Program-made: the position numbers and the translations under genes
DNA from: a virus
Taxonomy: Duplodnaviria; Caudoviricetes
IMG/VR virus record: IMGVR_UViG_3300020362_000006
Span: 1 to 54,055 of that record
Length of the DNA: 54,055 nucleotides
Strand: one strand, 5' to 3'
Shown: one piece after another, positions 2,361-40,905 of the stretch
How positions within the stretch are numbered: position 1 is the first letter of the stretch
Layout of the letters: each line of letters opens with the position of its first letter
Notes under the pieces: generated by a model
The model's database searches: none
Seen by the model: the letters and a program-made list of their open reading frames with translations, nothing else
Told to the model about the DNA's origin: nothing

Positions 2361-3446
2361 ATGCCCCCACGTAATCATAAAGACTGGATAAAGAAACCTA
2401 AAATAGAGTATGTAAACTCTTTGATATATTCTGACCGTAGTTTATATGAACAAGAACAAGAAAACATATTTTCCAAAGTTTGGGTGCCTATGTGTCACAT
2501 CAGCGAAATGCGGAACAAAGGTGACTACAGGACCACACAAATTGCTGGCAAAAGAGTTATTGCAATTAACATAGACGGTAAGAATGTTAAGGCTTATTAT
2601 AATACTAATGATATTGACTATCGTACACCTGCTGGAACTATTACCTATGATGGTTGGGCAACAACAGAAAAACCCCTACATTGTGAAGTAAAACATGGGG
2701 GTATGGTCTGGGTGACACTAGACCCCAATCCAACACAGAGTGTAGAAGAATGGACGTGTGGTGCATTTGACTGTATTGCAGATGCAATCGACACAGAAGA
2801 ACTAGAGGTATTTCACTATCACAAAGCTATCATAGATACTAATTACAAGTTGTGGCACGATACTAACTCAGAGTTTTACCACGACTTTATGCATTACTTT
2901 AATCGTGTGTCAGGATTTAATGATGAGTACTTTGCTAGAAAAAATATTCCATTCGATAACGGACATGTCAACGTCAGTAGCTTTACAGTTAACTACGAAG
3001 AGTACGATGGTTTTGAAGACAGAGGAGAACTTAGTTTCCCTAACCTTCCGCCTAACCAATGGTATATGGTAGACTTGTTTCCCGGCTACAACTTTAATCT
3101 ACGTGGCAGTGCCTATCGTAGTGACAGTGTAACACCACTAGGACCAAACAAAGTTCTTATTGAGTTTCGGGGCTACGGTTTGCGTAGGGACACAGAAGAA
3201 GAAAGACAGACTCGTATCAAACATCACAACTCTATATGGGGACCGTTTGGTCGGAACCTACATGAAGACCTAATTGGTGTTGCAGGTCAAGGCACAACAA
3301 TGCGAGAAGGCACCGAACCACGAAACATTTTACACGGACGACACGAAAACAGTACAATCCACGATGAAGTAGGTATGCGCCATTATTATGCAGAATGGTC
3401 GAAATGGATGCAAGTGGATGCTAGTAATCCTGCACTGGCAGCGTAA
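2361..3446 (+). CDS. msmA: Rieske non-heme oxygenase alpha-subunit homologue, methanesulfonate monooxygenase MsmA-like, lacking Rieske ligands
   Basis: IYSD..YEQEQENIFSKVW..CHISE..GDY N-terminus, NYKLW..NSEFYHDFMH iron-site His pair, LFPGYNF, HEDL Asp; no CxH...CxxH. Confidence 0.75.
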   Translation: MPPRNHKDWIKKPKIEYVNSLIYSDRSLYEQEQENIFSKVWVPMCHISEMRNKGDYRTTQIAGKRVIAINIDGKNVKAYYNTNDIDYRTPAGTITYDGWATTEKPLHCEVKHGGMVWVTLDPNPTQSVEEWTCGAFDCIADAIDTEELEVFHYHKAIIDTNYKLWHDTNSEFYHDFMHYFNRVSGFNDEYFARKNIPFDNGHVNVSSFTVNYEEYDGFEDRGELSFPNLPPNQWYMVDLFPGYNFNLRGSAYRSDSVTPLGPNKVLIEFRGYGLRRDTEEERQTRIKHHNSIWGPFGRNLHEDLIGVAGQGTTMREGTEPRNILHGRHENSTIHDEVGMRHYYAEWSKWMQVDASNPALAA

Positions 3447-3480
3447 ACGATGATTATCAACCGACCAACGAGGAACAAAG

Positions 3481-3960
3481 ATGATTGCAGAAACCCTTGC
3501 GGGTATCGCACTGGTGAAGAGTGCCGTAGACGGTATTAAATCTGCAATTGGAACAGCCAAAGATGTTGGTGAAATTGCAGGGCATATTGATAACCTGCTA
3601 ACTGGTGAAAAGCAAGTACAGGAACAACGGGCACGTAAATCTGGTGTTAGCTTGGGTGACCAGTTCGGTATCAAGTCAGTTGCACAAGAAGTGATAGATG
3701 CACGGCTTGCACAAGAAAGCCTAAACGAAATGCGTACAATGGTGGACCTACGCTTTGGTCCCGGTACTTGGCAATCTATAGTTGACGAACGTGCACGTCG
3801 CATAAAAGAAGCAAAAGAAGCAGAGCGTCAAGCCAGAATTCAAGCCCAACGCGAACATGATGAGTTCATGGAAGGTTTGAAACAATCCGCTTTGGTTAGC
3901 TTAGTTGTAGCAGTAGCAATAGGTTTATTCTTTGCATTCATTATCCTACTTCCAAAATAA
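3481..3960 (+). CDS. Hypothetical protein with C-terminal TM helix
   Basis: 159 aa, SD GAGGA, coiled coil plus TM. Confidence 0.75.
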   Translation: MIAETLAGIALVKSAVDGIKSAIGTAKDVGEIAGHIDNLLTGEKQVQEQRARKSGVSLGDQFGIKSVAQEVIDARLAQESLNEMRTMVDLRFGPGTWQSIVDERARRIKEAKEAERQARIQAQREHDEFMEGLKQSALVSLVVAVAIGLFFAFIILLPK

Positions 3961-4442: not shown

Positions 4443-5105
4443 ATGACATTTCTTGAACTTATAAATGCCGTTCTACGTGAAGTAAACGAAGTTGAACTTA
4501 CGACTCTTGCTTCTAGTAGAGGCATACAGACTTCTGTAAAAGACTTTATAAATAAGTCACAAAGAGATATTATCAATTCTGAGGTTGAGTGGCCTTTTAC
4601 AATTGTGTCTACCTCTTTTACAACTACAGCAAGTACAGCGGAGTACACACCCCCCGCAGCCGTAAAGACCATAGATTTCGATACATTTACCGTTCAAGAA
4701 TCTGCAACAACAGCCGAAAAAAGTTTAAGTTACTTATCGTTCAACGAATACATAGAGCATTACAACGAGGTAGACACTAATCCTAACGGAGACAGCGAAG
4801 GACTACCTCGTTACGTCTATTTTACACCGGACGAAAAGATAGGATTGTCACCTGTACCTGATGTTGCTACATACACTGTAAGATATTACTATTATGCAAC
4901 TCATTCTGATATGGTTGCAGCAACAGATACGCCTGCTATACCAGAACGATTCCATGATGTTATAGTGAACCGTGCACGTTACTACACACATATGCTACGC
5001 TCTGATACTCAGTTCTCTCAGCTTGCGCTACGAGATTACGAACAAGGTTTGAATCGTATGCGTGTCGAACTTATCAACCGTAAGGATTACATGAGGGCCG
5101 TATAA
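4443..5105 (+). CDS. Head-tail adaptor / tail tubular protein A-like
   Basis: MTFLELINAVLRE start, WPF, LSPVPD, PAIPERFHDVIV motifs; position before nozzle. Confidence 0.75.
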   Translation: MTFLELINAVLREVNEVELTTLASSRGIQTSVKDFINKSQRDIINSEVEWPFTIVSTSFTTTASTAEYTPPAAVKTIDFDTFTVQESATTAEKSLSYLSFNEYIEHYNEVDTNPNGDSEGLPRYVYFTPDEKIGLSPVPDVATYTVRYYYYATHSDMVAATDTPAIPERFHDVIVNRARYYTHMLRSDTQFSQLALRDYEQGLNRMRVELINRKDYMRAV

Positions 5106-6610
5106 TGCCAGATACCTCGCTACTCAGTCCATTCGTAGTTCGTTTAGGTGGTGGATTGGTTCTGGACAAAGATACTTTTTCACAGCCACCGGGTTCTGCA
5201 GTGCAGCTAAAAAATTTTGAGCCTGATATTAACGGTGGGTATCGCCGTATCAACGGGTTTGATGAGTTTGATACAAACCAAATAGGCGGTTCATCAGGCA
5301 CGGTTCTAGGTGTACACATTTACAAAGACCAAGTCATTGCTGCAAAAGGAACCTCTGTGTTTAAAAGCACAGGCAGTGGTTACACTAGCATCGACACTGG
5401 GCGAACCAGTGCAGGACGATACAACTTTGTAAATTTTAACTTTGATGGCACCGACAAAATGATTATGGTTGATGGTGCCAATCTTGCGTCAGTGTTCAAC
5501 AACACAACAGTAACTGACGTAAGTGCATCTGGCAGACCTGCAGACCCAAAGTTTGTAGAGATATTTAGAAGCCACGCATTCTACGCTGGCATGTCTGCAA
5601 GTCCTCAAGAACTTATATTTAGTGTACCGTTTGATGAAGATAATTTCAGTGCAGCAGACGGTGCGGGTTCGATAAAGGTAGACGGTGTTATTGTAGGTAT
5701 CAAAGTCTTCCGTGAAAACTTGTTCGTTTTTTGTGAAGATTCTATATTCAAAATAACAGGTTCAAGCCTATCTGATTTTGCAGTAGTCCCTGTTACCAGA
5801 AAGATTGGCTGTGTAGACGGTTTTAGCATACAGGAGATATCTGGTGATATCGTGTACCTTGCCCCTGACGGTTTGCGAACAATTGCTGGTACTGAAAGAA
5901 TCGGGGACGTGGAACTTGGCACCATATCCAAACAGATACAGCCTCGCCTAGACAATGTTACAACTGACAGAATATCATCCCTTGTAATCAGAAGCAAAAG
6001 TCAATACCGTTTGTTTTTTCCGGGGGACTCTCAGGCAGAAGCTGCCGCTGCAGGAATTATTGGCGTAATTAAAGCAGGAGTGGATGGCGGAGTAGGCTGG
6101 GAATATGCGGACATTGTAGGTATAAAAGCTGCATGTTGTGCATCTGGATTTATTAGCGGCGTTGAAACTGTCATTCATGGTGGATATGACGGGTACGTAT
6201 ACAAGCAAGAAACTGGTAAAACATTCAACAGTACAAACATATCAGCTTTGTATGAGTCCCCTGCATATACTATGGGAGATGTCGGCGTCAGGAAGATGAT
6301 GCAAAGAATTATCTGGAACTATAACAACGAAGGCCCAGTGGATTCAGACTTCCGTATTAGATATGATTTTGGTTCTACAAGCATACCCCAACCTGCAGCT
6401 TATCCTCTTACTATAGGTGGCTCATCTGCTATTTACGGAACAAATACATATGGCACAGCCGTATACGGTTCATCAGGTGAACCAATTGTTAGACAGAGTA
6501 TAGAGGGTAGCGGGTTTACAGTTTCGGTTCGTTTAGATGACGCAGACGGAGCCGACCCCATTTCAATTAAAGGATACCAACTGGAATTTACACCGGGTGG
6601 AAGGAGATAA
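5105..6610 (+). CDS. Tail nozzle / tubular protein B-like (beta-propeller)
   Basis: 501 aa beta-rich, IGCVDGFSIQE and YLAPDGLR motifs. Confidence 0.7.
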   Translation: MPDTSLLSPFVVRLGGGLVLDKDTFSQPPGSAVQLKNFEPDINGGYRRINGFDEFDTNQIGGSSGTVLGVHIYKDQVIAAKGTSVFKSTGSGYTSIDTGRTSAGRYNFVNFNFDGTDKMIMVDGANLASVFNNTTVTDVSASGRPADPKFVEIFRSHAFYAGMSASPQELIFSVPFDEDNFSAADGAGSIKVDGVIVGIKVFRENLFVFCEDSIFKITGSSLSDFAVVPVTRKIGCVDGFSIQEISGDIVYLAPDGLRTIAGTERIGDVELGTISKQIQPRLDNVTTDRISSLVIRSKSQYRLFFPGDSQAEAAAAGIIGVIKAGVDGGVGWEYADIVGIKAACCASGFISGVETVIHGGYDGYVYKQETGKTFNSTNISALYESPAYTMGDVGVRKMMQRIIWNYNNEGPVDSDFRIRYDFGSTSIPQPAAYPLTIGGSSAIYGTNTYGTAVYGSSGEPIVRQSIEGSGFTVSVRLDDADGADPISIKGYQLEFTPGGRR

Positions 6611-9363: not shown

Positions 9364-9812
9364 TGCCCTTTTTAGGCAACTTACCTAACGCCAGTTTTCA
9401 GTCACGTCCAGCAAAACAGGAGTTTAATGGTGATGGGTCAACAACAGTGTTTACCCTTAACCAAACTTCTCGTGCAGAAGACCTTATCGTATCTGTAGAT
9501 GGCGTGGTCCAAGAGCCAACTGACTCTTACACTGTACCGAATGGAACAGCTTTAACATTTAGTGAAGCACCTTCTAGCGGCACTGGTAATATCTTTGTTA
9601 TGTACATGGGTACGTCTGCTGGGTCTATTTCACCTGCCGCAGAAAACAGAGGCAATTTTAAGGCTGGCGGTATCTTCCGCACAAACAATCAGACACTCAA
9701 CACAGACACTACTATCCTAGCCACAGAGAACGCCAACGTAACTGGTCCGTTTACTGTGGCTTCTGGTGTAACTCTTACAGTCGAATCTGGCGGGACGTTG
9801 GTGACGCTATGA
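9363..9812 (+). CDS. Tail-fibre adaptor-like protein, cassette A head gene
   Basis: FNGDGSTTVFTL and VSVDGVVQEP motifs; paralogue of 12694-13152. Confidence 0.7.
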   Translation: MPFLGNLPNASFQSRPAKQEFNGDGSTTVFTLNQTSRAEDLIVSVDGVVQEPTDSYTVPNGTALTFSEAPSSGTGNIFVMYMGTSAGSISPAAENRGNFKAGGIFRTNNQTLNTDTTILATENANVTGPFTVASGVTLTVESGGTLVTL

Positions 9813-10195
9813 GTACATTAAAAGCAGATACCATACAAAGCACAGGCGGCGGTGCAGCTACGCTGACTAAACAGAGTGCGTCAAAAGCAAGAATAGAAAA
9901 AACTGGTGACAACTCTACGATTAACGAAAGTTTTAATGTAAGCAGTCTTGATGATGATGCTACTGGAAAGTGCGGGGTAAACATGACATCTGCTTTTTCA
10001 ACAGCACGTTATGTTCCTGCTGGTGCAAGTGCATACACAACTGATTCTAGCGACTATAGGCAATACTTAGGTAGTAATTTGCATAATAACTTAGATGAAA
10101 CCCGAACAACTACTGCTTGTCATCACGGTGTTTGGGAAGGTAGTTACGTTGATGCTGGTTCTCAGGGCATAGTGTATTTTGGAGACTTAGCATGA
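9809..10195 (+). CDS. Fibre-tip-like paralogue P1
   Basis: MSTLKADTI..SKA..SFNVSSLDDDATG..GDLA. Confidence 0.75.
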   Translation: MSTLKADTIQSTGGGAATLTKQSASKARIEKTGDNSTINESFNVSSLDDDATGKCGVNMTSAFSTARYVPAGASAYTTDSSDYRQYLGSNLHNNLDETRTTTACHHGVWEGSYVDAGSQGIVYFGDLA

Positions 10196-10605
10196 GTGAG
10201 ATAAAAACAGACAAGCTCACTGGCGTAAGCACCGCTGGGTCTATCCTTGTAACAGGTGAAGGTAATAGCACAACGACTAACTTGCAGCAGGGATTGGCGA
10301 AGGCGTGGGTTACTTACACGGATGTAAGTTGGACTATTGGTGACTCGTTAAATTGCAGTTCAGCAACTGACCACACTACTGCAGATTTTTCTACTAATTT
10401 CACTAATAATTTTGGAAGCAATAATATTGTAAGTGCAGGTACATCTACTTACGGAGCGTACTTTTCGTATTATGAATCTAGTGGAAACTCACACACAACA
10501 TCTTCTGTTAGATACTATGGGTTGACCACCGCTGGGTCTGCTACAGACCCCAATTATTCATACGGTTCTAGTTCAGGGTGGAATTATCAGGGAGACTTAG
10601 CGTAA
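10192..10605 (+). CDS. Fibre-tip-like paralogue P2
   Basis: MSEIKTDKL..AKAWV..SLNCSSATD..GDLA. Confidence 0.75.
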   Translation: MSEIKTDKLTGVSTAGSILVTGEGNSTTTNLQQGLAKAWVTYTDVSWTIGDSLNCSSATDHTTADFSTNFTNNFGSNNIVSAGTSTYGAYFSYYESSGNSHTTSSVRYYGLTTAGSATDPNYSYGSSSGWNYQGDLA

Positions 10606-10982
10606 TGGCACTAGGAAAAATCAAAGCAGATACCCTAGAACACAGCACTTCCGGCTCTGTAGATACGAAATATGTTGTTGAGGGTAGTGCTAAGGCGTGG
10701 GTGAGTATGGATGCTGGAGAAACAATAAATGATAGTCTGAACACAGCATCCCTTACCGATAACGCGACAGGAGACCACACCGCTAACTGGACAAACGCAT
10801 TATCACTTGCAAATTATGCGGTGGCAACATTTAGCAGAGCAACAACAACTTACATGCAAATTGCCACTCCAGAAGGACCGTTTACCACAACTACCGTTAC
10901 TATAAATACACATCAGTCTAACAGCCTAACTAAAGGCGATAAGACAGAGAATGGTATAATGGTTCAAGGAGAATTAGCATAA
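10605..10982 (+). CDS. Fibre-tip-like paralogue P3
   Basis: TAATG overlap; MALGKIKADTL..AKAWV..SLNTASLTDNATG..GELA. Confidence 0.75.
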   Translation: MALGKIKADTLEHSTSGSVDTKYVVEGSAKAWVSMDAGETINDSLNTASLTDNATGDHTANWTNALSLANYAVATFSRATTTYMQIATPEGPFTTTTVTINTHQSNSLTKGDKTENGIMVQGELA

Positions 10983-11455
10983 TGCAGACACCAGAGTTTC
11001 AAGGCACACACCTGTTTGACCGTCTGTGCTGGGCAAAAGAAAACTTAGAAGGTTATCAGTCAGACTATCGTGTAGTCTACGAAGACAACATAGATGAATG
11101 TGCAAAGATACTTGTGCCTGACCCAAACTGGATGGCAGCAGCCCTACAAGGTGGCATCTTACCACCTGTGTGGGTCTATTGGGAACTAGCTAAAGATGAA
11201 GCACAACCTGACTTTAAGAAGCACACTCGTGGTTACTTGCTTCACAACACAAAGCCTGTCGAAGCTATGACAGAAGAACAGGCAATAGAATACTTAATTA
11301 TGAAAGATTGCCCACAGCATGTATGGCGCAATTGGAACGAGGGCAACAAACCTAAACTGGTTATCTGCCGTAAAGAACAGCTTCCGGGTACACGTGAGTG
11401 GCGCAATGCTTGGAAGATTACTGAAGAACTGAGCGTCACTGAATTGGCTGCATAA
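10982..11455 (+). CDS. Hypothetical protein of tail-fibre cluster
   Basis: 157 aa, coupled start, REWRNAW motif. Confidence 0.75.
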   Translation: MQTPEFQGTHLFDRLCWAKENLEGYQSDYRVVYEDNIDECAKILVPDPNWMAAALQGGILPPVWVYWELAKDEAQPDFKKHTRGYLLHNTKPVEAMTEEQAIEYLIMKDCPQHVWRNWNEGNKPKLVICRKEQLPGTREWRNAWKITEELSVTELAA

Positions 11456-11466
11456 GGAGAAAATTA

Positions 11467-11841
11467 ATGGCACCAACAACATACATCGTAGACAAGGACG
11501 GGAATCAGATTGATGCTTCAACCGCAACCGTTCCTTCTGACCGTCACTTTCGTGGTGCATGGTCATTAAGTGGCAACGTCATTTCAGAAGACTTGGACGC
11601 TGCTAAAGTTATCTTCAAGGACAAAATCCGTGAAGTTCGCGCACCACTGCTAGAGGCAGAGGATGTCGTGTATATGAAGGCTCTTGAAGCTGATGACGCA
11701 GACGCTAAAGCAGCATCAGTAACCAAGAAGACTAACCTTCGTAATGCCCCAGCCGCATCTGCAATTACAAATGCATCAAGCATTTCTGCACTGAAAGCAG
11801 CTTGGGACACTGATTTGCTGGGTGACAGCCCTTACGCATAA
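11467..11841 (+). CDS. Tail-fibre assembly-like protein
   Basis: DRHFRGAW, KIREVRAPLL, KTNLRNAP motifs; SD AAGGAG. Confidence 0.6.
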   Translation: MAPTTYIVDKDGNQIDASTATVPSDRHFRGAWSLSGNVISEDLDAAKVIFKDKIREVRAPLLEAEDVVYMKALEADDADAKAASVTKKTNLRNAPAASAITNASSISALKAAWDTDLLGDSPYA

Positions 11842-11851
11842 GGATAAATAG

Positions 11852-12364
11852 ATGCCTTTAACTACAATATTATCAGGCGGTCTTGGCACAGGTGTAGGTG
11901 GTAAGGTATTGCAAGTTAAAAGAACTGAAAGCAGTTCTACTATATCAAGTTCGTCAACAATACCTTATGACGACACAGACCCTACTTCTTCAGAAGGTGT
12001 AGAAATTTTATCGCTGTCATTTACGCCAATTAGTGCAACTGCTGACTTGCATTTATTTTTTACTATTTTTGCAAATGAAAATGCAAATGTAGGAGATAGA
12101 ATAGCATTGCCTGTTTTCAAAGGCACAACTTTAATTGGCGTAGGTTATCAAAATGCGACCTACGGTAGTTCATCAACTAACTGGATAGTAAACAACTTTT
12201 CAATTAAGCACTCACCAGCAAGCACCTCTGCCGCAACCTACAGTGTCCGTGGTGGAGTAAATGCTGGAACTTTTGAAAGTCTTGGTTCGATGACGTACAT
12301 GGAAAACGCAAAATATGGCGCAAACATTGTAAATAGTATGACCATTATGGAGATTGAGCCGTGA
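11852..12364 (+). CDS. Tail-associated beta protein X1
   Basis: GKVLQV...TP...MEIEP; paralogue of 14325-14858. Confidence 0.7.
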   Translation: MPLTTILSGGLGTGVGGKVLQVKRTESSSTISSSSTIPYDDTDPTSSEGVEILSLSFTPISATADLHLFFTIFANENANVGDRIALPVFKGTTLIGVGYQNATYGSSSTNWIVNNFSIKHSPASTSAATYSVRGGVNAGTFESLGSMTYMENAKYGANIVNSMTIMEIEP

Positions 12365-12684
12365 GCAGTTTTACAAAAGCTATGAACGATTTAGCCCCAA
12401 ATGCTATCTGGTCAGCAAGAGATAATGTAATTATTGAATGGCTTTCTGATGACATTGACCAGCCATCAGCAGAAGATATCGCCGCAAAGGTAGCAGAGTT
12501 TGATGCTCAAATTCCAATGAATCAGCTTAGAGATAAAAGAAACAAAAAGCTGGCTGAAACTGATTGGTGGGCTGGCTCTGACATTACTATGACAGATGCA
12601 CAGGCAGCTTACCGTCAGGCTTTGCGTGACATTACCGACACCTATAGCAACCTAGACGATGTGGTCTGGCCTACAAAACCCTAA
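12361..12684 (+). CDS. Phage tail-fibre assembly chaperone
   Basis: LRDKRNKKLAETDWW...YRQALRDIT...WPTKP signature. Confidence 0.8.
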   Translation: MSSFTKAMNDLAPNAIWSARDNVIIEWLSDDIDQPSAEDIAAKVAEFDAQIPMNQLRDKRNKKLAETDWWAGSDITMTDAQAAYRQALRDITDTYSNLDDVVWPTKP

Positions 12685-12693
12685 GGAATAACG

Positions 12694-13152
12694 ATGCCCT
12701 ACATAGGAAAATCCCCAGAGTTTGGTGTTCGCAACCGCTTCGTATATCAAGCCACAGCTAGTCAAACGACATTCAGTGGCAGCGATGCAGATGCAAAAAC
12801 ATTAAGCTATACAGATAGCCTGTACATGGATGTGTATCAGAATGGTGTGCTTCTAAAGCCGGGTACTGACTATGCAGCCACAACAGGCACAAGCGTTGTG
12901 TTAGTCACAGCCGCCAGCCTGAATGACATTGTTGAGATGGTGGTGTACGACACCTTTGCTGTAGCAAGTAGCTACACTAAAACAGAAAGTGACACACGCT
13001 ATCCATTCAAGGGTAACAACAGCATCATCCGCTTGAATGGGCAGACCATCTCTGCTGACATCACGATTGACAGCGATGAGAATGGCGTGTCGGCTGGTCC
13101 GATTACACAGAACGCCACAGTCACTGTTAATGGCTATTGGAGTATCGTATGA
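12694..13152 (+). CDS. Tail-fibre adaptor-like protein, cassette B head gene
   Basis: MPYIGKSP, ATASQTTF, VYQNGVLL..DY, C-terminal NGQTISADITI..AGPIT. Confidence 0.7.
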   Translation: MPYIGKSPEFGVRNRFVYQATASQTTFSGSDADAKTLSYTDSLYMDVYQNGVLLKPGTDYAATTGTSVVLVTAASLNDIVEMVVYDTFAVASSYTKTESDTRYPFKGNNSIIRLNGQTISADITIDSDENGVSAGPITQNATVTVNGYWSIV

Positions 13153-13514
13153 CCAGCGTATTAAATGTAGATACTATTGCTGACAAGGCTGGCACTGGTC
13201 CTGTTGCGTTAACTAAGCAACATGCTGCGAAGGCATGGGCACATTTTGATGGTAGTACACCCAGTTTAGATGCTAACTTTAACTTTTCAAGCCTCACAGA
13301 TAACGGCACCGGAGATTATAACCCGAACCTGACCAACAACATGTCCTCTGTTTCTTATGCTTGCGCTGGTTCAAGTAATCATACATCAAGTAATCGTGGT
13401 GCTTTTAGGGTATTAACCTATACCACAAGCACAGTTAATATAAGAATTTACGGAAATGGAAGTGCATCAGACGCTTCAGATGTTTCTGTTAATTTTCACG
13501 GAGACCTTGCGTAA
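13149..13514 (+). CDS. Fibre-tip-like paralogue P4
   Basis: MTSVLNVDTI..AKAWA..NFSSLTDNGTG..GDLA. Confidence 0.75.
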   Translation: MTSVLNVDTIADKAGTGPVALTKQHAAKAWAHFDGSTPSLDANFNFSSLTDNGTGDYNPNLTNNMSSVSYACAGSSNHTSSNRGAFRVLTYTTSTVNIRIYGNGSASDASDVSVNFHGDLA

Positions 13515-13924
13515 TGGCTAGTATTCTTAAAGTAGATGACCTGAGAGGTAACACAACGGCTAACGATATTACTGTTACTGTTGGTACATCTGCAACTATG
13601 AACCTCTTAATTGGTATAGTGAAAATGTATGCTCAGTCTAATAATATTACACCAGCAGTAGCAGATTCACTCAACACCGCTTCTTTAACAGATAATGCAA
13701 CAGGTTCATTTACATATAATTTTACCACAAATATGTCTAATGCAACCTATGGTTACGGAGAATGTTCTGGAGAAGAAAGCGGCGCTAGTGGAAATTCAAG
13801 CACTAGAACCGTAAGTCATAGTCATAGAACTAGTTCCACATTTAGAACATCTAACAGAAATTCTAGCAACACTCTAACTGATGCTGGTGCGGCGTGTATC
13901 TCAACCTACGGGGAGTTAGCATAA
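13514..13924 (+). CDS. Fibre-tip-like paralogue P5
   Basis: MASILKVDDL..SLNTASLTDNATG..GELA. Confidence 0.75.
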   Translation: MASILKVDDLRGNTTANDITVTVGTSATMNLLIGIVKMYAQSNNITPAVADSLNTASLTDNATGSFTYNFTTNMSNATYGYGECSGEESGASGNSSTRTVSHSHRTSSTFRTSNRNSSNTLTDAGAACISTYGELA

Positions 13925-14328
13925 TGGCAAGCGAACTTAGAGTTAATACCTTAAAGGATGCCAGCGGTAATAATAGCATTGCTACTAGCTTTGTTGCAAA
14001 TGGTAGTGCAAAAGCATTTAATGTGTTTGAACCAGACGTTGCGGCAACGATAGCAAGTCTAAATATAAGCACATTGACGGACAATGGCACGGGTGATTTT
14101 TCACACGCATTTACGTCATCGTTTGGTGCAGCAAAACAATATACTGTTGCAGGTTCTTGCGGTAATAGTGCAGCTTCAACAAATGCTATAGAATATTGCA
14201 AACCTAGTGAAGAAGCAGTTATTTTAGCTTCTTCATTGCGTACATCAACTGGTTATGTAACACCTACAGCGGCTGCTCTATATGACTATCCTAATTCCAG
14301 CTTTGCATGTCAAGGAGACCTAGCATGA
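13924..14328 (+). CDS. Fibre-tip-like paralogue P6
   Basis: MASELRVNTL..AKAF..SLNISTLTDNGTG..GDLA. Confidence 0.75.
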   Translation: MASELRVNTLKDASGNNSIATSFVANGSAKAFNVFEPDVAATIASLNISTLTDNGTGDFSHAFTSSFGAAKQYTVAGSCGNSAASTNAIEYCKPSEEAVILASSLRTSTGYVTPTAAALYDYPNSSFACQGDLA

Positions 14329-31972: not shown

Positions 31973-32516
31973 TGTAAAATTCCTCAAATGTAGTGCCAAA
32001 GGCCTCTAGCTGTTTTAGTGCTATCTCTTCTGTAGCTTGTACGTCAGCTTTACCGTACTCTTCTACTATCTCCCACGGGATGTCATAGAACGTCTTGCCC
32101 GATTTAAGATACGGTTCCACAAGGTCCTTCTCCTTGCGGGTAACGTCATACTTTTCTGCAAGAGAAGCAAGTCCAAGAGGCCAACGCTGTGCCTTCGCAA
32201 GAATATATTCCGCCACCATCGTATCGTAGATATCACCATCATAAACAAATCCACACTCCCGTATCCAAGATAAATCAAACTTGATGTTTTGTCCCACAAC
32301 CATGTCCGCTTCGTCAAGTGCATCTTGAAACAGTTCCGGTGCAAAGTCGTGAGGCTCTCTCTCAGAATGATAATAACAATGGTAATGTATATAAGGAGAT
32401 GTAAGCCGCTTGTAACCTATTGAAACTAAAGAGTTTCCAAAGTACGGCAACGCAGTTGTCGAACCGTTGGGCTTATGCTTGTGGGTAGTCTCCACATCAA
32501 AAGTAAGTACGTTCAT
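31932..32516 (-). CDS. 3'-5' exonuclease domain of DNA polymerase, separate ORF
   Basis: ExoI FDVET, ExoII QNIKFD, ExoIII YGKAD. Confidence 0.85.
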   Translation of the reverse strand: MNVLTFDVETTHKHKPNGSTTALPYFGNSLVSIGYKRLTSPYIHYHCYYHSEREPHDFAPELFQDALDEADMVVGQNIKFDLSWIRECGFVYDGDIYDTMVAEYILAKAQRWPLGLASLAEKYDVTRKEKDLVEPYLKSGKTFYDIPWEIVEEYGKADVQATEEIALKQLEAFGTTFEEFYNAADFTTDTKTVA

Positions 32517-33757
32517 TAGTAATACAGCCCCCGTTGTACATCAATGTGACTGGTGAACATACCGTGCCAACCATTCAGTTTGTTCTTGGAAATACAGATG
32601 TGACGTGTGGTGTTCTCCTCTTCGGACGTGCCCGTCTTACCAATGCCAATGATGACATCAGCTTCACCTGCCTTACCTGTTCGCGAACCGTCAAGCATAG
32701 CATAGTCAATAAACTGACGGTCATGTGCCTCAAAGCTGGCTTGGCTAACTGACCACACCAGCAGTTTGTTACGCTTGGCTATCTCACGGGCAACGACATA
32801 AGTTTCCTTTAGCCGTTCATCACCCCTGTTAAACTCACCAGCAACGCGAAACTTGTCTAGCTGGTCACAGAACATGACATCAGGTTCGTTGAGTTGGGCG
32901 TAGTCATTCAACTCTTCCATAGATGTGCCAACCGAATCCATCACAATTAGGTAGGGTTCTATCTCTTCACGATAGCGTTGTGACAAAGCATCCGCGCCTT
33001 GTGACATCTCCTCACGAGTCAGACCAAAAAAACTCTGTATTATCCGTAACTTAATCTTTTCGGCAGGTTCCTCGTTTGCCCAATAAACTACTTTGTGTTT
33101 TTGTTTGATGTAGCTTGCGGCAACGAACGCACAGAAGGTGGTCTTGCCGACCTCTGGACGCGCAAAGATAATACCTAGATTACCCCTGTCCATACCCGCT
33201 AAATGTTCGTTAAGTAAATCCCAAGTGAACGGGAAGTCAGGTTCGCCAACCTCTTCTTCCATAAGTTGTACAAAGTCTTTGTCCATCTCACTGTAGGTAG
33301 TCTTGTCGGACATACGCCCGTCCTCTACCATATCTATCAGCGTCTTCAATTCACCAAAGTGTTCCGATTCGCCAGTAAATATTGATATGGCTTTTTCACC
33401 AATCTGCCGCGCCTTGTCACGAACCCAGAAGTTCTTTACTATATCCGCCTCTAAATCGCCAGCATCCGACATATGTTCAGATAAGTTGGATATTATGTCG
33501 AACACCTCTTGCCGCGCACTATGCGGCATGGCAGGATTCCTGTCCATGAACAGTGAATCCAACTGGTCACGTGACAAATCCGTCTCGTAATTCTTGTGTG
33601 CATAGGATATCGTATCGAACAGGGTGACATAGCGTCCTTCGAACATGTCACGGGTCACGATGTTCTTTACCTTGTCATAGAATTTTCTGTTAAGCAGAAA
33701 CCCTAATACCTGTATTTCAATCGATGTATTTCTGGAAGGTGTGTCTTCGTTCATCAT
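32516..33757 (-). CDS. DnaB-like (SF4) replicative helicase
   Basis: Walker A ARPEVGKT, Walker B MFCDQLD, VSQA, ISKNKL. Confidence 0.9.
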   Translation of the reverse strand: MMNEDTPSRNTSIEIQVLGFLLNRKFYDKVKNIVTRDMFEGRYVTLFDTISYAHKNYETDLSRDQLDSLFMDRNPAMPHSARQEVFDIISNLSEHMSDAGDLEADIVKNFWVRDKARQIGEKAISIFTGESEHFGELKTLIDMVEDGRMSDKTTYSEMDKDFVQLMEEEVGEPDFPFTWDLLNEHLAGMDRGNLGIIFARPEVGKTTFCAFVAASYIKQKHKVVYWANEEPAEKIKLRIIQSFFGLTREEMSQGADALSQRYREEIEPYLIVMDSVGTSMEELNDYAQLNEPDVMFCDQLDKFRVAGEFNRGDERLKETYVVAREIAKRNKLLVWSVSQASFEAHDRQFIDYAMLDGSRTGKAGEADVIIGIGKTGTSEEENTTRHICISKNKLNGWHGMFTSHIDVQRGLYY

Positions 33758-34511
33758 CTGTCATATCTTTCACATCTTTGTTTAAAACAACTAAACTTGT
33801 AGGCCTGTGGGCCTGTAACTGCCGGACAAGCTGAAACGCTTTTTGTGTTGCGTCCTTATCCAACGCAACCAGCAGTCTATCATAACGCCGCAAGAACGGC
33901 AAGTGACTGTCTTGCAGGTTTGTGCCAAGCAATGCTATCCCCGAAAGAATATTAGATACACTGCAAGCAGAAGCACAGTCTTCCAAAATAACACCGATGC
34001 GGCTGGTACCGCAAACGAAAGGATTACCTGACTTTCCATATCTCCACCACTTTGGTTTGATGTTAGCTAAACTACGACCTGCCGCATCAACAGTCCTGCG
34101 TCCATCTTTTATTAGATAAACAACACGGTTCATTCGGAAGTCATAACGAATATCGACACGACCAGACAGGTACGCATCGTAAGCATTGACCCGCTTGACA
34201 TAAGATTCAGCGGCGGGTTCGCGGGAGAGAGCCACGAAAGTTTCAGGTAATTCAAAGACTTGTTCGTCATCTGGTTTGCGAACAGGTTGCACCTTCTTTA
34301 GTAAAGGATGGTAGGGTGCATCTTTGCGAACCCTGAATCCTGTTCGTCCACGAACCCCACAGTCTGCATGAAAGCAGAACCACAGCCGTTCACCGCCAGT
34401 GTCACTAACACTGAACGTGTTCTTCTTACCACACGCAGGACAGTCCATCCGTAGACGACCCTCTGGTGCAATTGTCAATCCTTCAACGTAATCTTTTAAC
34501 CAAGCTGTCAT
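33717..34511 (-). CDS. DNA primase (Zn ribbon plus TOPRIM)
   Basis: CPAC..CFHADC, LEDCASA, ALLGT, LDKDA. Confidence 0.85.
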   Translation of the reverse strand: MTAWLKDYVEGLTIAPEGRLRMDCPACGKKNTFSVSDTGGERLWFCFHADCGVRGRTGFRVRKDAPYHPLLKKVQPVRKPDDEQVFELPETFVALSREPAAESYVKRVNAYDAYLSGRVDIRYDFRMNRVVYLIKDGRRTVDAAGRSLANIKPKWWRYGKSGNPFVCGTSRIGVILEDCASACSVSNILSGIALLGTNLQDSHLPFLRRYDRLLVALDKDATQKAFQLVRQLQAHRPTSLVVLNKDVKDMTDDERRHTFQKYID

Positions 34512-34636: not shown

Positions 34637-34786
34637 ATGAAAATAACTAATAAAATAAACCCTATAGCTAAACTATTAAGGGACAAACAGTACACCAAAC
34701 AGGTTGTCCCCAACAAGAAAAAAACCAAACTAGATAAACTTGCAAAGAAGGAACTGAGGGATGGCAAGACCAGCCAAGATACCTGA
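34637..34786 (+). CDS. 49-aa basic peptide, ArfA-like N-terminal motif
   Basis: Below the ORF-track size cut-off; MKITNKINPIAKLLRDKQYTKQVVPNKKK; SD-like AGGGA. Confidence 0.55.
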   Translation: MKITNKINPIAKLLRDKQYTKQVVPNKKKTKLDKLAKKELRDGKTSQDT

Positions 34787-34970
34787 ACCAACTAAGACAT
34801 ACAGTCTGCTATTATCTGTAGAACAATACGATAGATTAGCAGTCCATGCAAAGAAGCTAGATAAGAAAAGCTATGAACAGGTCAGTGTTGGTGACCTAAT
34901 TCGTGACGGTATTGAATTATATCTTGAAGCGTTAGATGAGGAGAATGACCCTGATGTCTCTAAAGACTAA
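34761..34970 (+). CDS. Ribbon-helix-helix DNA-binding protein
   Basis: KTYSLLL strand, helix, SVGDLIRDGIELYL helix. Confidence 0.7.
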   Translation: MARPAKIPEPTKTYSLLLSVEQYDRLAVHAKKLDKKSYEQVSVGDLIRDGIELYLEALDEENDPDVSKD

Positions 34971-35205
34971 GAAGCTTGAAATAGAAATTGTTGAACGGCC
35001 CGACTATAAGTGGGCTTTGTTTGTTCCGGCATCATCTGTTCGAATTGGTGAGACAAGCCGCGAACTTGTCAAATCAAAGGACTGTGTAGACTATTTGCGT
35101 CACGTCATGCTTTTTGTCGGAAAAAGTCGCTATGAATGCAAAAAGTGGCTTGACACTAACAAACAGGCGGTGCTAAGACTAGGGATACCTTACGAGGTGT
35201 CGTGA
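34936..35205 (+). CDS. Hypothetical protein
   Basis: ORF overlapping RHH gene end; true start may be a downstream ATG. Confidence 0.6.
   Translation: MRRMTLMSLKTKKLEIEIVERPDYKWALFVPASSVRIGETSRELVKSKDCVDYLRHVMLFVGKSRYECKKWLDTNKQAVLRLGIPYEVS
35150..35179 (+). promoter_or_regulatory. Internal promoter for candidate sRNA-1
   Basis: cTTGACA-18-TAAGAC (gcTAAGAC), alphaproteobacterial-style -10. Confidence 0.45.
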
Positions 35206-35268
35206 GGTTGTTTCGTTCGTTGGTTGGGGAGCGGGGCTGGATTAATTTCTGGCCCCGTTTCTTTTTTT
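35184..35268 (+). ncRNA. Candidate trans-acting sRNA-1 (G/U seed)
   Basis: 5' hairpin ACCTTACGA/TCGTGAGGT, unpaired GTTTCGTTCGTTGGTT, terminator. Confidence 0.45.
35230..35268 (+). terminator. Intrinsic terminator
   Basis: AGCGGGGCTGGA/TCTGGCCCCGTT stem followed by T7. Confidence 0.85.
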
Positions 35269-35269
35269 G

Positions 35270-35298
35270 TTGACAGACTGTCTGGTTATCGATATTGG
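35270..35298 (+). promoter_or_regulatory. Early promoter
   Basis: TTGACA-17-TATTGG directly after terminator. Confidence 0.55.
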
Positions 35299-35305
35299 TA
35301 AAGAC

Positions 35306-35536
35306 ATGAATATAGCCAGACCAAAAGAAGCAACGTGGGACAACGCCAAACTATATCGCGTTGATTTCTACGATTTGCGGCTACCAGTATCCGGCACACG
35401 GCTCGTGTGGGCTGTTGTCGGACGCAAGTGGGTTCGTATTTGCACACCCGTACAAAACAAAAAGTTTCGTATGCGGCGTGGCGAATGGGACAAAATGTCA
35501 ACACAATTAGTTGAGGAAACGAACGATGTGGAGTAG
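35306..35536 (+). CDS. Early hypothetical protein
   Basis: MNIARPKE..SGTRLVWAVVGRKWV; start close to predicted TSS (near-leaderless). Confidence 0.6.
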   Translation: MNIARPKEATWDNAKLYRVDFYDLRLPVSGTRLVWAVVGRKWVRICTPVQNKKFRMRRGEWDKMSTQLVEETNDVE

Positions 35537-35949: not shown

Positions 35950-36100
35950 AGAACTAAAGCGGGATTTACAAATACTAGAGATTGAGCCAGAGTATGACCG
36001 CATGGGACGAATCAAGCTGACAGGTAATCGTCCGGTAAATGATGTAACTGCTCAACTGATGATGAAGGAAACGAACAATGAGACGAAAATTCATGGTTGA
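35930..36100 (+). CDS. 56-aa early peptide
   Basis: SD GAGGAG; MNVPTFKELKRDL... Confidence 0.55.
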   Translation: MNVPTFKELKRDLQILEIEPEYDRMGRIKLTGNRPVNDVTAQLMMKETNNETKIHG

Positions 36101-36463: not shown

Positions 36464-36663
36464 GCATGTACATTGACCCCGTCTACCCTGACAAGGCAAG
36501 TGACCCACGCTTGACAAACGTGGCTGACAAATGGCGAACGCTAAACAGACAAATCAGTGACGCTGACTGGCATGGCAAACCCGTGACAAAAGCGCAACGT
36601 GACAAATTATCCACGCTAAGACAAATGGTGCGACATGGCAAATTATTCACGCCAAATTTCTAA
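36460..36663 (+). CDS. Early hypothetical protein
   Basis: ATGA coupling, 67 aa. Confidence 0.6.
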   Translation: MSMYIDPVYPDKASDPRLTNVADKWRTLNRQISDADWHGKPVTKAQRDKLSTLRQMVRHGKLFTPNF

Positions 36664-36820
36664 TGACAAACGAACCACGCTAAACCCCAATTTTAAATGC
36701 CACAAGTGTGGCGAACCTGCGGCGGTTTATGTAGATAAGTGGCTTTATTGTCCGGCTTGTTATCTAAAAGAACAAGGCGCGAAAATAAAACCGCTTGACC
36801 ATACCGGATTTTATCCTTAA
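36635..36820 (+). CDS. Small Zn-finger protein
   Basis: CHKC..x..CPAC. Confidence 0.55.
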   Translation: MANYSRQISNDKRTTLNPNFKCHKCGEPAAVYVDKWLYCPACYLKEQGAKIKPLDHTGFYP

Positions 36821-36823
36821 CGT
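36795..36823 (+). promoter_or_regulatory. Early promoter
   Basis: cTTGACC-17-TAACGT, then short C/A-rich leader. Confidence 0.45.
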
Positions 36824-36855
36824 TTGCGAACCAACAACGAAAAGGAACCAACGAT

Positions 36856-37113
36856 ATGAAAAAACGAATTCACATAAACCAGCACGTCATCCGTGCAAAT
36901 AAAAAGAACGGGACAAACGACCCCGTCATCACCGTTAAAACTAGTCAGCGCAATGTATATGCCGACCGCGTCGAGATTCGCGGCCCGTCTAACGTTGTTT
37001 ATTCACCTGATAAACCGTTGTCATGCGGTGCCCGTGTTTGGATTGAAACTGAGGCCCCGATAGCGTGTGAGAATAACGGCAAGGTAACATTGTTTAGCGG
37101 GGTGTATAGCTAA
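36856..37113 (+). CDS. Conserved phage hypothetical protein
   Basis: IHINQHVIRAN..PVITVK..YSPDKPLSCGARVWIET. Confidence 0.8.
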   Translation: MKKRIHINQHVIRANKKNGTNDPVITVKTSQRNVYADRVEIRGPSNVVYSPDKPLSCGARVWIETEAPIACENNGKVTLFSGVYS

Positions 37114-37796
37114 TGAAAAAAGCAGACATAAACAAGCCAGCCGCGACCATGTACCCAAAGAGCCGCCGCGCTGTTGCCGATTGCAAATCCGTTTTGAAAC
37201 AGTCCAACAATAAAAAACTAAGCAAAGATAAACTGCCCGTAATCAAAAAAGGCAAGTTTAAAGGCTACGTTATTTATACCTTGACGCTTGAAGAACGGGC
37301 AACATGTCCCCGCTATTGCTATCATTGGGATAATTGCTACGGCAATAACATGATGTTCGGGCACCGTATCCAGCACGGGCCGGAACTAGAAGCCGCATTG
37401 CAAAAAGAAGTTGCCGAACTTTGCGCGACCTATCGCGGGGTGATTATTCGGTTACATGTGCTGGGTGATTTTTATTCGGTGGACTATGTCGAACTATGGC
37501 AACACTTACTAACCAAATTTGATAACCTAGCTATTTGGGGTTTCACCGGATACAAGCCAACAAGCGATATTGGTTTAGCTATTCGGGCCGTGCGGGGTTC
37601 GTTTGGTGAGCGGTTCGCGGTTCGGTTCAGCAATGCACCGGACTGGCAATTCAGCGCGAACAGTGCCGACCTATTCGAACAGGTAAAAAACAAATCGGTA
37701 ATCTGTCCCGAACAAACGGGGCAAACCGAATCGTGCGCCACCTGTACGATATGCTGGGCGGCAAAAGACATGCAAGTTTTGTTTCAAACCCACTAA
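37113..37796 (+). CDS. Cys-rich GP88-like protein (putative Fe-S)
   Basis: TCP..C....CY, RLHVLGDF, CPEQ..CATCTIC. Confidence 0.65.
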   Translation: MKKADINKPAATMYPKSRRAVADCKSVLKQSNNKKLSKDKLPVIKKGKFKGYVIYTLTLEERATCPRYCYHWDNCYGNNMMFGHRIQHGPELEAALQKEVAELCATYRGVIIRLHVLGDFYSVDYVELWQHLLTKFDNLAIWGFTGYKPTSDIGLAIRAVRGSFGERFAVRFSNAPDWQFSANSADLFEQVKNKSVICPEQTGQTESCATCTICWAAKDMQVLFQTH

Positions 37797-37924: not shown

Positions 37925-38017
37925 TCTGAATTTTTTTTTGGGAATTGGGTTACCATCCGGTCAAAACCGTGTATAGTTATGTTATTGTTTAATCAAACGA
38001 CGAAAGGAACGAAACGA

Positions 38018-39573: not shown

Positions 39574-39593
39574 CAATGAAGGGAACCAACGTT

Positions 39594-39836: not shown

Positions 39837-39936
39837 TCACATCATCATGCTAGTGTTGCTGGCTTGGATTGTTATTGCTTGCTGGTGTTTGTTTGCGGCA
39901 TTGTGGAATTTAGCAAAGGAAGATATGCGGCAGTAA
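39826..39936 (+). CDS. 36-aa single-TM peptide
   Basis: MLVSHIIMLVLLAWIVIACWCLFAALWNLAKEDMRQ; last gene before terminator. Confidence 0.5.
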   Translation: MLVSHIIMLVLLAWIVIACWCLFAALWNLAKEDMRQ

Positions 39937-39984
39937 GTTTGCGAACCGTTGGGGGGAATCCTCCGGCCCTCTGATGGGAACCTT

Positions 39985-40020
39985 GGCCCCGCTTGGCTAG
40001 TCCGGCGGGGTTCTTTTTTT
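39985..40020 (+). terminator. Intrinsic terminator ending early region
   Basis: GGCCCCGCT/GGCGGGGTT stem then T7. Confidence 0.8.
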
Positions 40021-40400
40021 GTCCGGCATGTTTAATGCGGCTATGGGTTTGTAAAGCTTGCGGATATCCGGCTTTGGGTTTGTGGCGGTTTGTGTGTATT
40101 TCGTAGACCGAAAGGCCGCCCCCATGGTTACCAACTTGGCAAATTATAGACGCGCGGGTGTGCGGGTGCGAGCGTGTTTGCTGGTTTTGATATGTGTTCG
40201 CGGGGTTTGGGTGTGTGTTCGCGGGGTTGCCGTTTCGGCGAAGTGACTAAATGTAAATAAATTTGACCCGTGTGCGGGTGCGCGAGGGCCACCCCACCCC
40301 CCCGGCATTTGCTATGCAATCCCGACATCATTTTTATATTTTTTAGGTTATCGATATGGTTTATTTGCGAACCGTTAGGGAACCCCTACGAAACTTGAGG
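40021..40400. repeat. Non-coding strand-skewed repeat region, probable genome end/packaging or origin site
   Basis: G/T-rich + strand; GTGTGCGGGTGCG x2 (40158, 40270), TGTGTTCGCGGGG x2 (40193, 40214), C-run near 40292-40303, AT tract. Confidence 0.55.
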
Positions 40401-40401
40401 C

Positions 40402-40504
40402 AAAAAAAGACCCCACCGGGGAACCAGCGGGGTGGAGTTTGCGAACCTCTAGGGGGGAGTTTGGGTAGCCGGGGGGGATATAGGGTTTACCCCCGGCAGG
40501 CTTA
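40402..40504 (-). ncRNA. Candidate sRNA-2 (C-rich, anti-SD-like)
   Basis: Promoter at 40538-40510, 8-bp 5' hairpin, AAACUCC motifs, 10-bp terminator plus U7. Confidence 0.55.
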
Positions 40505-40509
40505 AAGCT

Positions 40510-40538
40510 ATTGTATAGTTCAGATTCAGTTTTGTCAA
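40510..40538 (-). promoter_or_regulatory. Leftward sigma70 promoter
   Basis: TTGACA-17-TACAAT on minus strand. Confidence 0.75.
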
Positions 40539-40577
40539 GAAAAATCGACAAACTTACCCAAAAAACCAACTAAACAG

Positions 40578-40606
40578 TTGACAACGGTTCGAAAACTCGC
40601 CATAAT
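40578..40606 (+). promoter_or_regulatory. Rightward sigma70 promoter of packaging module
   Basis: TTGACA-17-CATAAT, divergent from 40538 promoter. Confidence 0.7.
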
Positions 40607-40641
40607 AGAGGCATGTTGCCTAATTTTAAAGGATATATCCT

Positions 40642-40905
40642 GTGTTCGAATCTTGGATTCTTGTTTGTTTGTCTGCTGTGCCTAATATGTGCACAGAAAT
40701 TCGTGACACATTAGGCCCATATCCCACAGAAGAAGAATGTTCAGTTCGAAATGACGAAATGGCACAATATGCCTTCTCAAATCAGCTATTCGAAGTGACA
40801 ATACGCAGTCGTTGTAAGGTAATTGACGATGAATCTACTACCCCAGACCCAGAAAAAGAAGGAACTGACAGCCCAACAGGAACAGTTCTTGGAACTTCTA
40901 CTTGA
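40642..40905 (+). CDS. Small Cys-containing protein
   Basis: GTG start, SD AAAGGA; WILVC..C..GPYPTEEEC..RC. Confidence 0.65.
   Translation: MFESWILVCLSAVPNMCTEIRDTLGPYPTEEECSVRNDEMAQYAFSNQLFEVTIRSRCKVIDDESTTPDPEKEGTDSPTGTVLGTST

Follow-up and report, generated by a model that had tools for sequence, protein, structure and literature searches.

The stretch of DNA analysed here, called the window throughout, is the complete phage record IMGVR_UViG_3300020362_000006 (Duplodnaviria; Caudoviricetes), with a length of 54,055 bp and a CheckV completeness of 100%. It contains a plus-strand cluster of small genes which is plausibly the early region of the phage. Within this cluster an open reading frame (ORF) of 89 amino acids (aa), named ORF89, is followed by a hairpin, an unpaired G/U-rich tract and an intrinsic terminator (Table 1). 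As judged from the sequence and its relatives, positions 35186–35268 very likely represent a gene for a small RNA (sRNA) of about 83 nucleotides (nt). We propose, at somewhat better than even odds, that the tract of this phage sRNA acts as a seed which pairs with the start regions of early genes and lowers their translation.

The putative sRNA gene begins inside ORF89. Promoter and 5' hairpin of the sRNA share sequence with the last 56 nt of this reading frame, whose TGA stop codon is located inside the 3' arm of the hairpin. The original prediction had placed a promoter, a hairpin, a tract and a terminator at this site, and all of these coordinates proved to be correct. Folded alone, the RNA 35186–35268 forms the hairpin, 17 unpaired nt and the terminator with a minimum free energy (MFE) of −38.7 kcal/mol. 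None of 200 shuffled sequences was as stable (z = −6.25). The tract is unpaired in both the MFE and the centroid fold of the RNA from the window.

Table 1. Features of the predicted sRNA gene, its candidate targets and the surrounding phage genome.
Feature	Position	Strand	Remarks
ORF89 (89 aa)	34936–35205	+	no Pfam or PHROG match; precedes the element in all relatives
sRNA promoter, −35 TTGACA	35150–35155	+	TTGAC in 62/62 unique ORF89 homologues
sRNA promoter, −10 TAAGAC	35174–35179	+	TAAAAC in many relatives; 18-nt spacer from −35
Predicted sRNA, about 83 nt	35186–35268	+	start inferred from −10, end from T run
5' hairpin	35187–35208	+	9 bp, loop GGUG
Unpaired G/U-rich tract (seed) UGUUUCGUUCGUUGGUU	35209–35225	+	GTTTCGTTCGTTGGTT at 35210–35225
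Intrinsic terminator	35226–35263	+	T run to 35268; core stem 35232–35262; 16 pairs, 8 G-C
Promoter P2, TTGACA-N17-TATTGG	35270–35298	+	adjoins terminator; drives downstream early genes; kept in relatives
Seed complement AACGAACGA	35518–35526	+	between Shine-Dalgarno sequence (SD) and ATG 35526 (42-aa ORF); duplex −12.6 kcal/mol
Seed complement AACGAAC	36070–36076	+	before ATG 36078 (59-aa ORF); duplex −13.6 kcal/mol
Promoter P3, TTGACC-N17-TAACGT	36795–36823	+	predicted transcript starts with the C/A-rich 36856 leader
C/A-rich leader of gene 36856–37113 (PHROG 8676)	36829–36854	+	two seed complements flanking SD
Seed complement GAACGAAAC	38007–38015	+	before ATG 38018 (DUF932 protein)
Seed complement AACCAACG	39584–39591	+	before ATG 39594 (80-aa ORF); duplex −14.9 kcal/mol
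Seed complement ACCAACGA	3464–3471	+	upstream of SD, gene 3481–3960; duplex −17.5 kcal/mol
Small-gene cluster	34.6–39.9 kb	+	divergent from primase promoter region
Replication/nucleotide module	24.5–34.5 kb	−	ribonucleotide reductase; DnaB-like helicase 32516–33757; primase 33717–34511
Packaging and structural genes	about 40.8 kb through record end to about 24.4 kb	+	
Small terminase	40829	+	
Large terminase	41680	+	
Portal	45242	+	
Capsid	51539	+	

The proposed promoter is recognizable from the codons in which it is embedded. For this purpose a codon alignment of 62 unique ORF89 homologues (51–98% aa identity) was evaluated by the entropy of the third codon positions, which amounts to 0.8–1.9 bits in most codons of ORF89. 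In TGG-CTT-GAC (35146–35154) it is 0 in all 62 homologues, including the two synonymous third positions within TTGAC, while other Asp codons of ORF89 are split between T and C (T33/C29 and C28/T23). The codons of the −10 element, GTG-CTA-AGA (35170–35178), show values of 0.21/0/0.21. The codons of the spacer (35155–35169) and of the discriminator (35179–35184) are variable, with entropies of 0.7–1.8. This alternation of a fixed −35, a free spacer, a fixed −10, a free discriminator and a constrained hairpin is as expected of an embedded promoter with a start near 35186, i.e. 1 base 5' of the hairpin. Promoters of the form TTGACA/TTGACC-N17-TA are also found in intergenic positions at 8519, 35270, 53012, 34560 (minus strand) and 40538 (minus strand), and a further TTGACC-type copy at 36795 lies within the 3' end of ORF 36635–36820. 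Clearly, the phage uses host-type promoters. In ORF89, 23–31 nt 5' of the −35, the synonymous positions of GGAAAAAGT (35119–35127) are likewise nearly invariant (entropy 0.40/0/0.35); this string might be an UP-like element.

Relatives of the element were discovered by an exact 16-mer scan of IMG/VR, which was used for discovery only and returned 93 stretches. About a third of them are real relatives with 70–90% identical flanks, and the remaining ones are unrelated coding sequence in other phages. Since such a set is biased by construction, the relatives were collected again by protein. A search with the single ORF89 sequence gave 49 loci, and an alignment search of IMG/VR gave 156 relatives, from which the best 80, down to 51% aa identity, were kept. 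Wherever the locus is long enough, ORF89 is followed in the same order by the hairpin, the unpaired G/U tract, the terminator and a TTGACA promoter. Hairpin 1 either holds the stop codon of ORF89 or comes after it. A covariance model, R1, was built from 14 sequences of the short form. It has one match in the window and one per locus in 72 of 72 relative loci, always directly 3' of ORF89.

Consensus folds of 14 short-form and 9 long-form sequences keep hairpin 1, the terminator and, where present, a second hairpin, and the tract is unpaired in both. Compensatory double changes occur in 7 of 24 pairs of the short form and in 4 of 23 pairs of the long form. In the terminator, such changes are present in 6/16 and 3/15 pairs, respectively. 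In the 5' hairpin of the 14 short-form relatives, one of the 8 consensus pairs has changed on both sides, from C-G to U-A, in 2 of the sequences. This change adjoins the stop codon of ORF89, which varies between TGA, TAG and TAA, and the pairing is kept with all three. The tract itself is the most conserved segment among the 18 unique type-A relatives from the protein search: 22 of the 23 columns in 35209–35231 are invariant, compared with 80 of 143 columns in the upstream ORF89, whose DNA has a mean column identity of 0.87 in this set. Taken together, the invariant synonymous sites of the promoter, the covarying hairpins and terminator and the position of the tract as the most conserved segment support the prediction of an sRNA gene with its own promoter.

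The second hairpin is found in distant relatives between hairpin 1 and the tract (e.g. L157:1772–1888, L143:1026–1139 and L152:3250–3363) and is missing in the type present in the window. Its loop, (G)AGUGGUUA or CUGGUUA, is conserved, and its stems covary between groups (GAGAGG/CCUCUU, CAGGGGG/CCCCUUG and CAUGGG/CCCAUG).

No known RNA family was recognized. The search of the whole window against Rfam 15 at gathering thresholds gave no match, and at E ≤ 10 only chance-level rows were obtained around the element, both in the window and in the relative L157. L20_leader appeared with 21.6 and 18.6 bits, far below its gathering threshold of 58.7. For ORF89, an AlphaFold2 model with a mean predicted local distance difference test (pLDDT) score of 70 had no match at E ≤ 0.001 in a Foldseek search of the PDB. 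A role of ORF89 as RNA chaperone or RNA-binding protein was considered and dropped, as even the top Foldseek rows, levivirus coat proteins among them, are meaningless at E > 0.6.

The tract has complements at start regions of the phage. Seven matches to the reverse complement of the seed had been listed in the original prediction, most of them said to lie between SD and ATG. All seven are present, and five complements are indeed placed between an SD-like GGA and the ATG, namely those at the starts 35526, 36078, 36856, 38018 and 39594. The matches at 36829–42 and 3464–71 are located upstream of the SD. In the leader of gene 36856, the upstream complement consists of 36829–35 together with 36836–42, and a further one covers 36846–54. 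The predicted duplex with this leader spans positions −11 to +7 and has an energy of −16.6 kcal/mol. Gene 36856–37113 is followed by a gene of the GP88 family (37113–37796). As far as sequence comparison can tell, the leader of 36856 is the best-supported candidate target. The site at 3464–3471, outside the early cluster, is the weakest candidate.

For the enrichment of such matches, complementarity of at least 8 nt was counted in 84 start regions called by our own heuristic start caller, 22 of them early. The seed has exact matches at 5 of the 84 starts, 4 of these among the 22 early ones. Shuffled seeds (n = 5000) matched 0.40 starts on average (P = 0.002), so that the original expectation of more seed matches at starts than in controls holds for exact matches. 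Sets of random windows from coding sequences never reached 5 matches (0/2000). As many starts are matched by 136 of 108,078 genome 16-mers (0.13%), and most of the 80 inspected carry C/T-rich strings resembling an anti-SD. Among 24 loci of relatives, 22 have more matches between their own tract and their own early starts than shuffled tracts have on average, and for 10 of the 24 the P value is ≤ 0.05.

Further evidence comes from the comparison of tracts and leaders across the lineage. The tracts were sorted into types, with GUUUCGUUCGUUGGUUGG in type A, CUUUCGUUGGUUGG(UUG) in types B and F, UUUCCUU(U)GGUUGGUUG in types D and E, CUUUCAUGUUGUUGUGUGG in type G, CUUUCGUUGUUGUGG in type H, CUUUCGUUGUUGUGUGUGG in type H2 and a divergent tract in type I. 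They belong to two classes, GGUUGG (types A, B, D, E, E2 and F) and GUUGUG (types G, H and H2). For three early genes, 36856, 38018 (DUF932) and 39133 (helix-turn-helix, HTH), the orthologous leaders contain CCAACC- or CACAAC-type strings that match the class of the tract.

In gene 36856, a conserved CTTGACC-N17-TA promoter is present upstream in all tract types, and the leader is C/A-rich from the predicted transcript start to the ATG. Within this leader, AACCAAC or AACCGAAC is found in types A–F, whereas types G, H and H2 have CACAACAA or ACACACGACA. The cross matrix of tract types and 36856 leaders consists of two blocks. The mean energy with the leader of the own type is better than with permuted types (20-nt core, P = 0.0016; full 25 nt, P = 0.011), as is the length of the longest helix (P = 0.009 with Watson-Crick pairs only and 0.029 with G-U pairs). 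When the longest Watson-Crick match is compared with permuted types gene by gene, P is 0.015 for the 36856 leader (10 types), 0.0021 for DUF932 (8 types) and 0.082 for HTH (7 types).

The DUF932 orthologues of types A and F have CAACGAAAGG before the SD. In type D the corresponding string is AACCAAAGGAAAGG, a perfect match of 12 nt to the D tract, and in the type-H2 locus L237 it is CACACAACAACAACGAAAGG, a perfect match of 13 nt. In type B the perfect match also reaches 13 nt. In the HTH orthologues, the interval from SD to ATG holds AAACCAACCA if the tract is of type D, E or F, (A)CACACAAC if it is of type H2 and CCACAACA if it is of type H. The tract string UUUCCUUU of types D and E is complementary to the leader string AAAGGAAA, which includes an SD-like AGGA. 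The two type-A genomes L186 and L190 have AACCGAC for AACCAAC in both leader copies beside an unchanged tract. An RNA duplex accepts this exchange as a G-U pair. Such co-variation of seed and leader favours direct pairing at the start regions. The co-conservation of seed and leaders that the original prediction called for is seen at the level of tract classes for three orthologous genes, but it is limited by the small number of independent events and by the misfit of type I.

Two further features of early-gene leaders were observed. In type-A relatives (L130–L154), different first genes after P2 share one 5' untranslated region (UTR) which ends in ...AAGGGAACGAACGATG and contains a seed complement. 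The window does not have this shared 5' UTR; the −10 of its P2 (35293–35298) is only 7 nt away from ATG 35306, so that the messenger RNA (mRNA) would be almost leaderless. Furthermore, short G+C hairpins (gcggggttgtcccgc; gggcattgccc) are found in many relatives directly before the start regions of the DUF932 and HTH orthologues. Possible roles are in processing, in stability or as weak terminators.

From these data the following mechanism is proposed. A host-type sigma-70 promoter in the last codons of ORF89 would start transcription near 35186. The resulting RNA would start with the 5' hairpin, continue with an unpaired G/U-rich seed of 17 nt and end in an intrinsic terminator and its U tail. 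Its seed may then base-pair with C/A-rich sequences around the SD and start codon of early genes encoded directly downstream. The clearest target would be the 5' leader of gene 36856, which forms an operon with 37113. Other putative targets are the DUF932 gene 38018 and the orthologues of the HTH gene 39133, and the genes starting at 35526, 36078 and 39594 are probable ones. Pairing would block binding of the 30S ribosomal subunit and thereby reduce the initiation of translation. As it accumulates, a stable RNA of this kind would act as a timer that shuts off the early proteins. We infer the production of the RNA, its pairing in vivo, its repressive effect and its role as a timer; on this basis the sRNA probably dampens the translation of phage early genes. 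Of the initial idea of an sRNA that pairs with early genes, the sRNA gene and the pairing at three orthologous genes are supported by the comparative data, and the counts of favourable energies are not in its favour.

These counts belong to a number of observations that weigh against the proposal. Duplex energies of the 17-nt seed with positions −35 to +10 of the 84 starts were calculated with G-U pairs and bulges allowed and were compared with those of 1000 shuffled seeds. Contrary to the expected enrichment, starts at or below −10 to −13 kcal/mol are not more frequent than with shuffled G/U seeds (P 0.23–0.85). The only energy measure that is better is the mean of the top five duplexes (−16.9 versus −14.8 kcal/mol for shuffles, P = 0.026). 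Many G/U-rich strings would pair with these A/C-rich start regions. Because G/U-rich 17-mers pair so promiscuously, enrichment alone is not convincing. Some of the gene starts assigned by the heuristic caller are wrong. In types D, E2 and F the own tract is not singled out by the minimum energies over all early starts, and in many rows of the comparisons between types, by energy as well as by longest match, the own type does not rank first. Type I is a misfit, with rank 8–9 of 10 by energy. The three deep branches G, H and H2 could correspond to one to three switches, and the ORF89 tree, based on 89 columns and poorly resolved, cannot fix the number of switches between tract types. As the types are clades on this tree, the independent events of co-variation are few.

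The promoter has weak points as well. The one at 35150 was not listed by a simple promoter scan, since position 6 of the −10 is not a T. Both this lack of the usual final T and the 18-nt spacer are unfavourable, and the conservation of the promoter is entangled with that of the C-terminus of the ORF89 protein. Finally, the sRNA is a prediction from sequence, and phage and host are uncultured. Since the energy counts are not enriched and the cross matrix over all starts is noisy, our conclusion rests on the orthologous leaders and the exact matches.

The sRNA could also be real and have its main job elsewhere, either on host mRNAs (e.g. by mimicking a G/U-seed regulator with which the host controls C/A-rich transporter leaders) or in binding or titrating an RNA-binding protein. 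We regard this as unlikely, although several findings would agree with it. The matches at phage starts would then be a by-product of the low complexity on both sides, and by energy G/U-rich shuffles do pair about equally well with the phage starts. The conserved loop of hairpin 2, (G)AGUGGUUA or CUGGUUA, on a covarying stem looks like a second recognition site. The phage sRNAs PreS and VpdS, as characterized in the work cited, mainly act on host genes (PMC12197685). If the phage leaders were irrelevant, however, the co-variation between the classes of tract and leader at three orthologous phage genes would be unexpected.

It is quite improbable that the element is no separate sRNA at all and merely ends the first early operon as its 3' UTR and terminator, or represents an attenuator read from the embedded promoter. 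It would then act via the stability of the mRNA 3' end or via regulated read-through into the next operon. The position of the element fits this explanation, as it ends a two-gene operon (34761–35205) directly before P2, in a layout reminiscent of cro-nutR-tR1 of lambda, and conservation is to be expected of terminators and 3' hairpins in their own right. A terminator, however, needs no invariant unpaired tract of 17–23 nt, nor should such a tract co-vary with leaders at a distance of 1.6–4 kb. The synonymous invariance is confined to the −35 and −10 elements and leaves the spacer variable, which points to a promoter 30 nt 5' of the hairpin. Moreover, no alternative antiterminator pairing appears in the folds of the window RNA or of the two consensus sets.

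A very improbable alternative is that the string shared by tract and leaders is recognized in double-stranded DNA by a phage protein such as the HTH protein 39133, with the copies at 35210 and at the leaders following changes in the specificity of this protein. A motif read in either orientation would also produce co-variation of tract and leader, the leader 36829–36854 lies just downstream of P3 and the tract about 45 nt upstream of P2, and an HTH protein is encoded in the early cluster, but the tract is not palindromic, its complements in the early cluster are on the plus (mRNA) strand with several in SD-ATG spacers within operons and far from promoters, the long match of the G/U strand occurs only once and between two covarying RNA hairpins, and AACCGAC leaders beside an unchanged tract suit G-U pairing rather than one protein specificity.

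Returning to the proposed pairing of the sRNA with early genes, known systems offer several parallels. GcvB is an Hfq-dependent sRNA of enterobacteria (Rfam RF00022) whose unpaired G/U seed pairs at or upstream of the SD and lowers translation. The proposed seed logic is the same here, with a G/U seed directed against C/A-rich sequences near the SD of many mRNAs. GcvB, however, is about 200 nt long and targets host transporters, whereas the present element has about 83 nt, is encoded by a phage and has phage early genes as candidate targets. RF00022 gave no match in the whole window at gathering thresholds and is absent from the E ≤ 10 list for 35100–35320. Small RNAs of the DapZ/MicL type have their promoter in the 3'-terminal part of a coding gene, whose terminator they share; DapZ also carries a GcvB-like G/U seed. 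The predicted layout with a promoter in the upstream ORF and a shared terminator is the same in our phage-borne element. It is not a member of the DapZ family, since RF02551 reaches 14.8 bits only (gathering threshold 56; E = 3.2, chance level).

Small RNAs that control the genes of their own phage are represented by the c4 RNA of P1/P7 and the CI RNA of P4. They pair with short boxes in transcripts of the same phage and block translation or transcription of downstream genes. Both systems and the element studied here have in common that a small RNA from the same region would control the phage's own genes. In contrast to this element, with its own predicted promoter and a candidate target set of many genes, the c4 and CI RNAs are processed from an operon leader, serve in temperate immunity and have one or two target boxes. 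Without a match in Rfam, the likenesses to DapZ/MicL, GcvB and c4/CI are resemblance and not family relationship.

The cited study of GcvB describes the C/A (ACA) motifs targeted by this sRNA as translation enhancers (PMC3879156). Among phage-encoded RNAs, PreS of lambda and VpdS of VP882 are presented as Hfq-associated base-pairing sRNAs in lytic growth (bioRxiv 10.1101/2024.10.31.621285; PMC12197685). According to one of these sources, PreS targets host genes and VpdS influences the levels of phage and host mRNAs (PMC12197685). As far as these two accounts go, most of the phage sRNAs described belong to temperate phages that infect enteric bacteria or Vibrio (bioRxiv 10.1101/2024.10.31.621285; PMC12197685). 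While PreS and VpdS belong to such temperate phages, the present element is found in an uncultured marine group and appears to co-evolve with phage leaders.

The comparative signal points to a conserved sRNA, predicted to be transcribed independently, in a large uncultured marine phage family, with the phages' own early genes as candidate targets. We consider the co-evolution of seed and leaders across an abundant marine phage lineage to be the interesting part. If the pairing is real, control of several targets by one sRNA would be part of the basic early programme of this group of ocean phages, and the seed/leader "dialects" would provide a natural set for studying the co-evolution of sRNA regulons. 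A wider idea can be put forward only tentatively and is in our view somewhat doubtful: the whole lineage may possess a self-contained RNA regulon, in which one stable sRNA, made from entry onwards, reads a C/A "leader code", with seed and code co-evolving (GGUUGG/CCAACC versus GUUGUG/CACAAC dialects). Such a regulon would be a protein-free timer for shutting off early translation. Related phages might thereby be kept from regulating one another, and the RNA might hijack host mRNAs with similar enhancers.

The relationship of the phage to cultured ones is distant. A 501-aa protein (5105–6610) has 53% identity to its counterpart in Pelagibacter phage HTVC033P and 49% to that in Puniceispirillum phage HMO-2011, and the primase has 36% and 32.5%, respectively. 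On these grounds the phage appears to be a distant relative of the HMO-2011-type marine phages. It differs from them in gene order, and its replication module is on the opposite strand. A literature search, which covered papers without their supplementary files, found none combining HMO-2011 with a small RNA. Among 50,697 phage records, neither tblastn with ORF89 nor blastn with a 1.5-kb query around the element gave a match; none of the isolates among these records has ORF89. The covariance model R1 had no match in the first 9 kb of HTVC033P or HMO-2011, the only part searched. The 25-nt tract string does not occur in a set of genomes from 185,579 bacterial and archaeal species, and 18 pattern matches for ORF89 relatives in this set yielded no confirmed one. 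No tRNA genes were found in the window, and there was no integrase or repressor among the genes scanned.

Some observations concern other parts of the window. ORF 2361–3446 contains a Ring_hydroxyl_A domain (ring-hydroxylating oxygenase alpha subunit, E = 5.5e-7) and is a possible auxiliary metabolic gene. The structural genes 9809–14325 have a common start-region motif, GGAGAnnTAGC(A)TAATG, with stop-start overlaps, which differs from the motif AAGGAAC(C/G)AAC of the early genes.

The 10-mer TTTGCGAACC is present in 9 copies where 0.13 are expected, a number reached in none of 100 shuffles. The copies are located at 7265, 15550, 16937 and 41580 on the minus strand and at 34323, 36823, 39938, 40364 and 40438 on the plus strand, and they are often extended to TTTGCGAACCG(C/T)T. 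One copy adjoins the C/A leader of gene 36856, and three are found in a non-coding stretch near 40 kb. This stretch (39900–40800) comprises about 0.9 kb without a convincing ORF and contains several direct and inverted repeats, a terminator-like hairpin near 39985–40011 and, on the minus strand, TTGACA-N17-TACAAT at 40538. An origin, a packaging site or further RNA genes might be located there.

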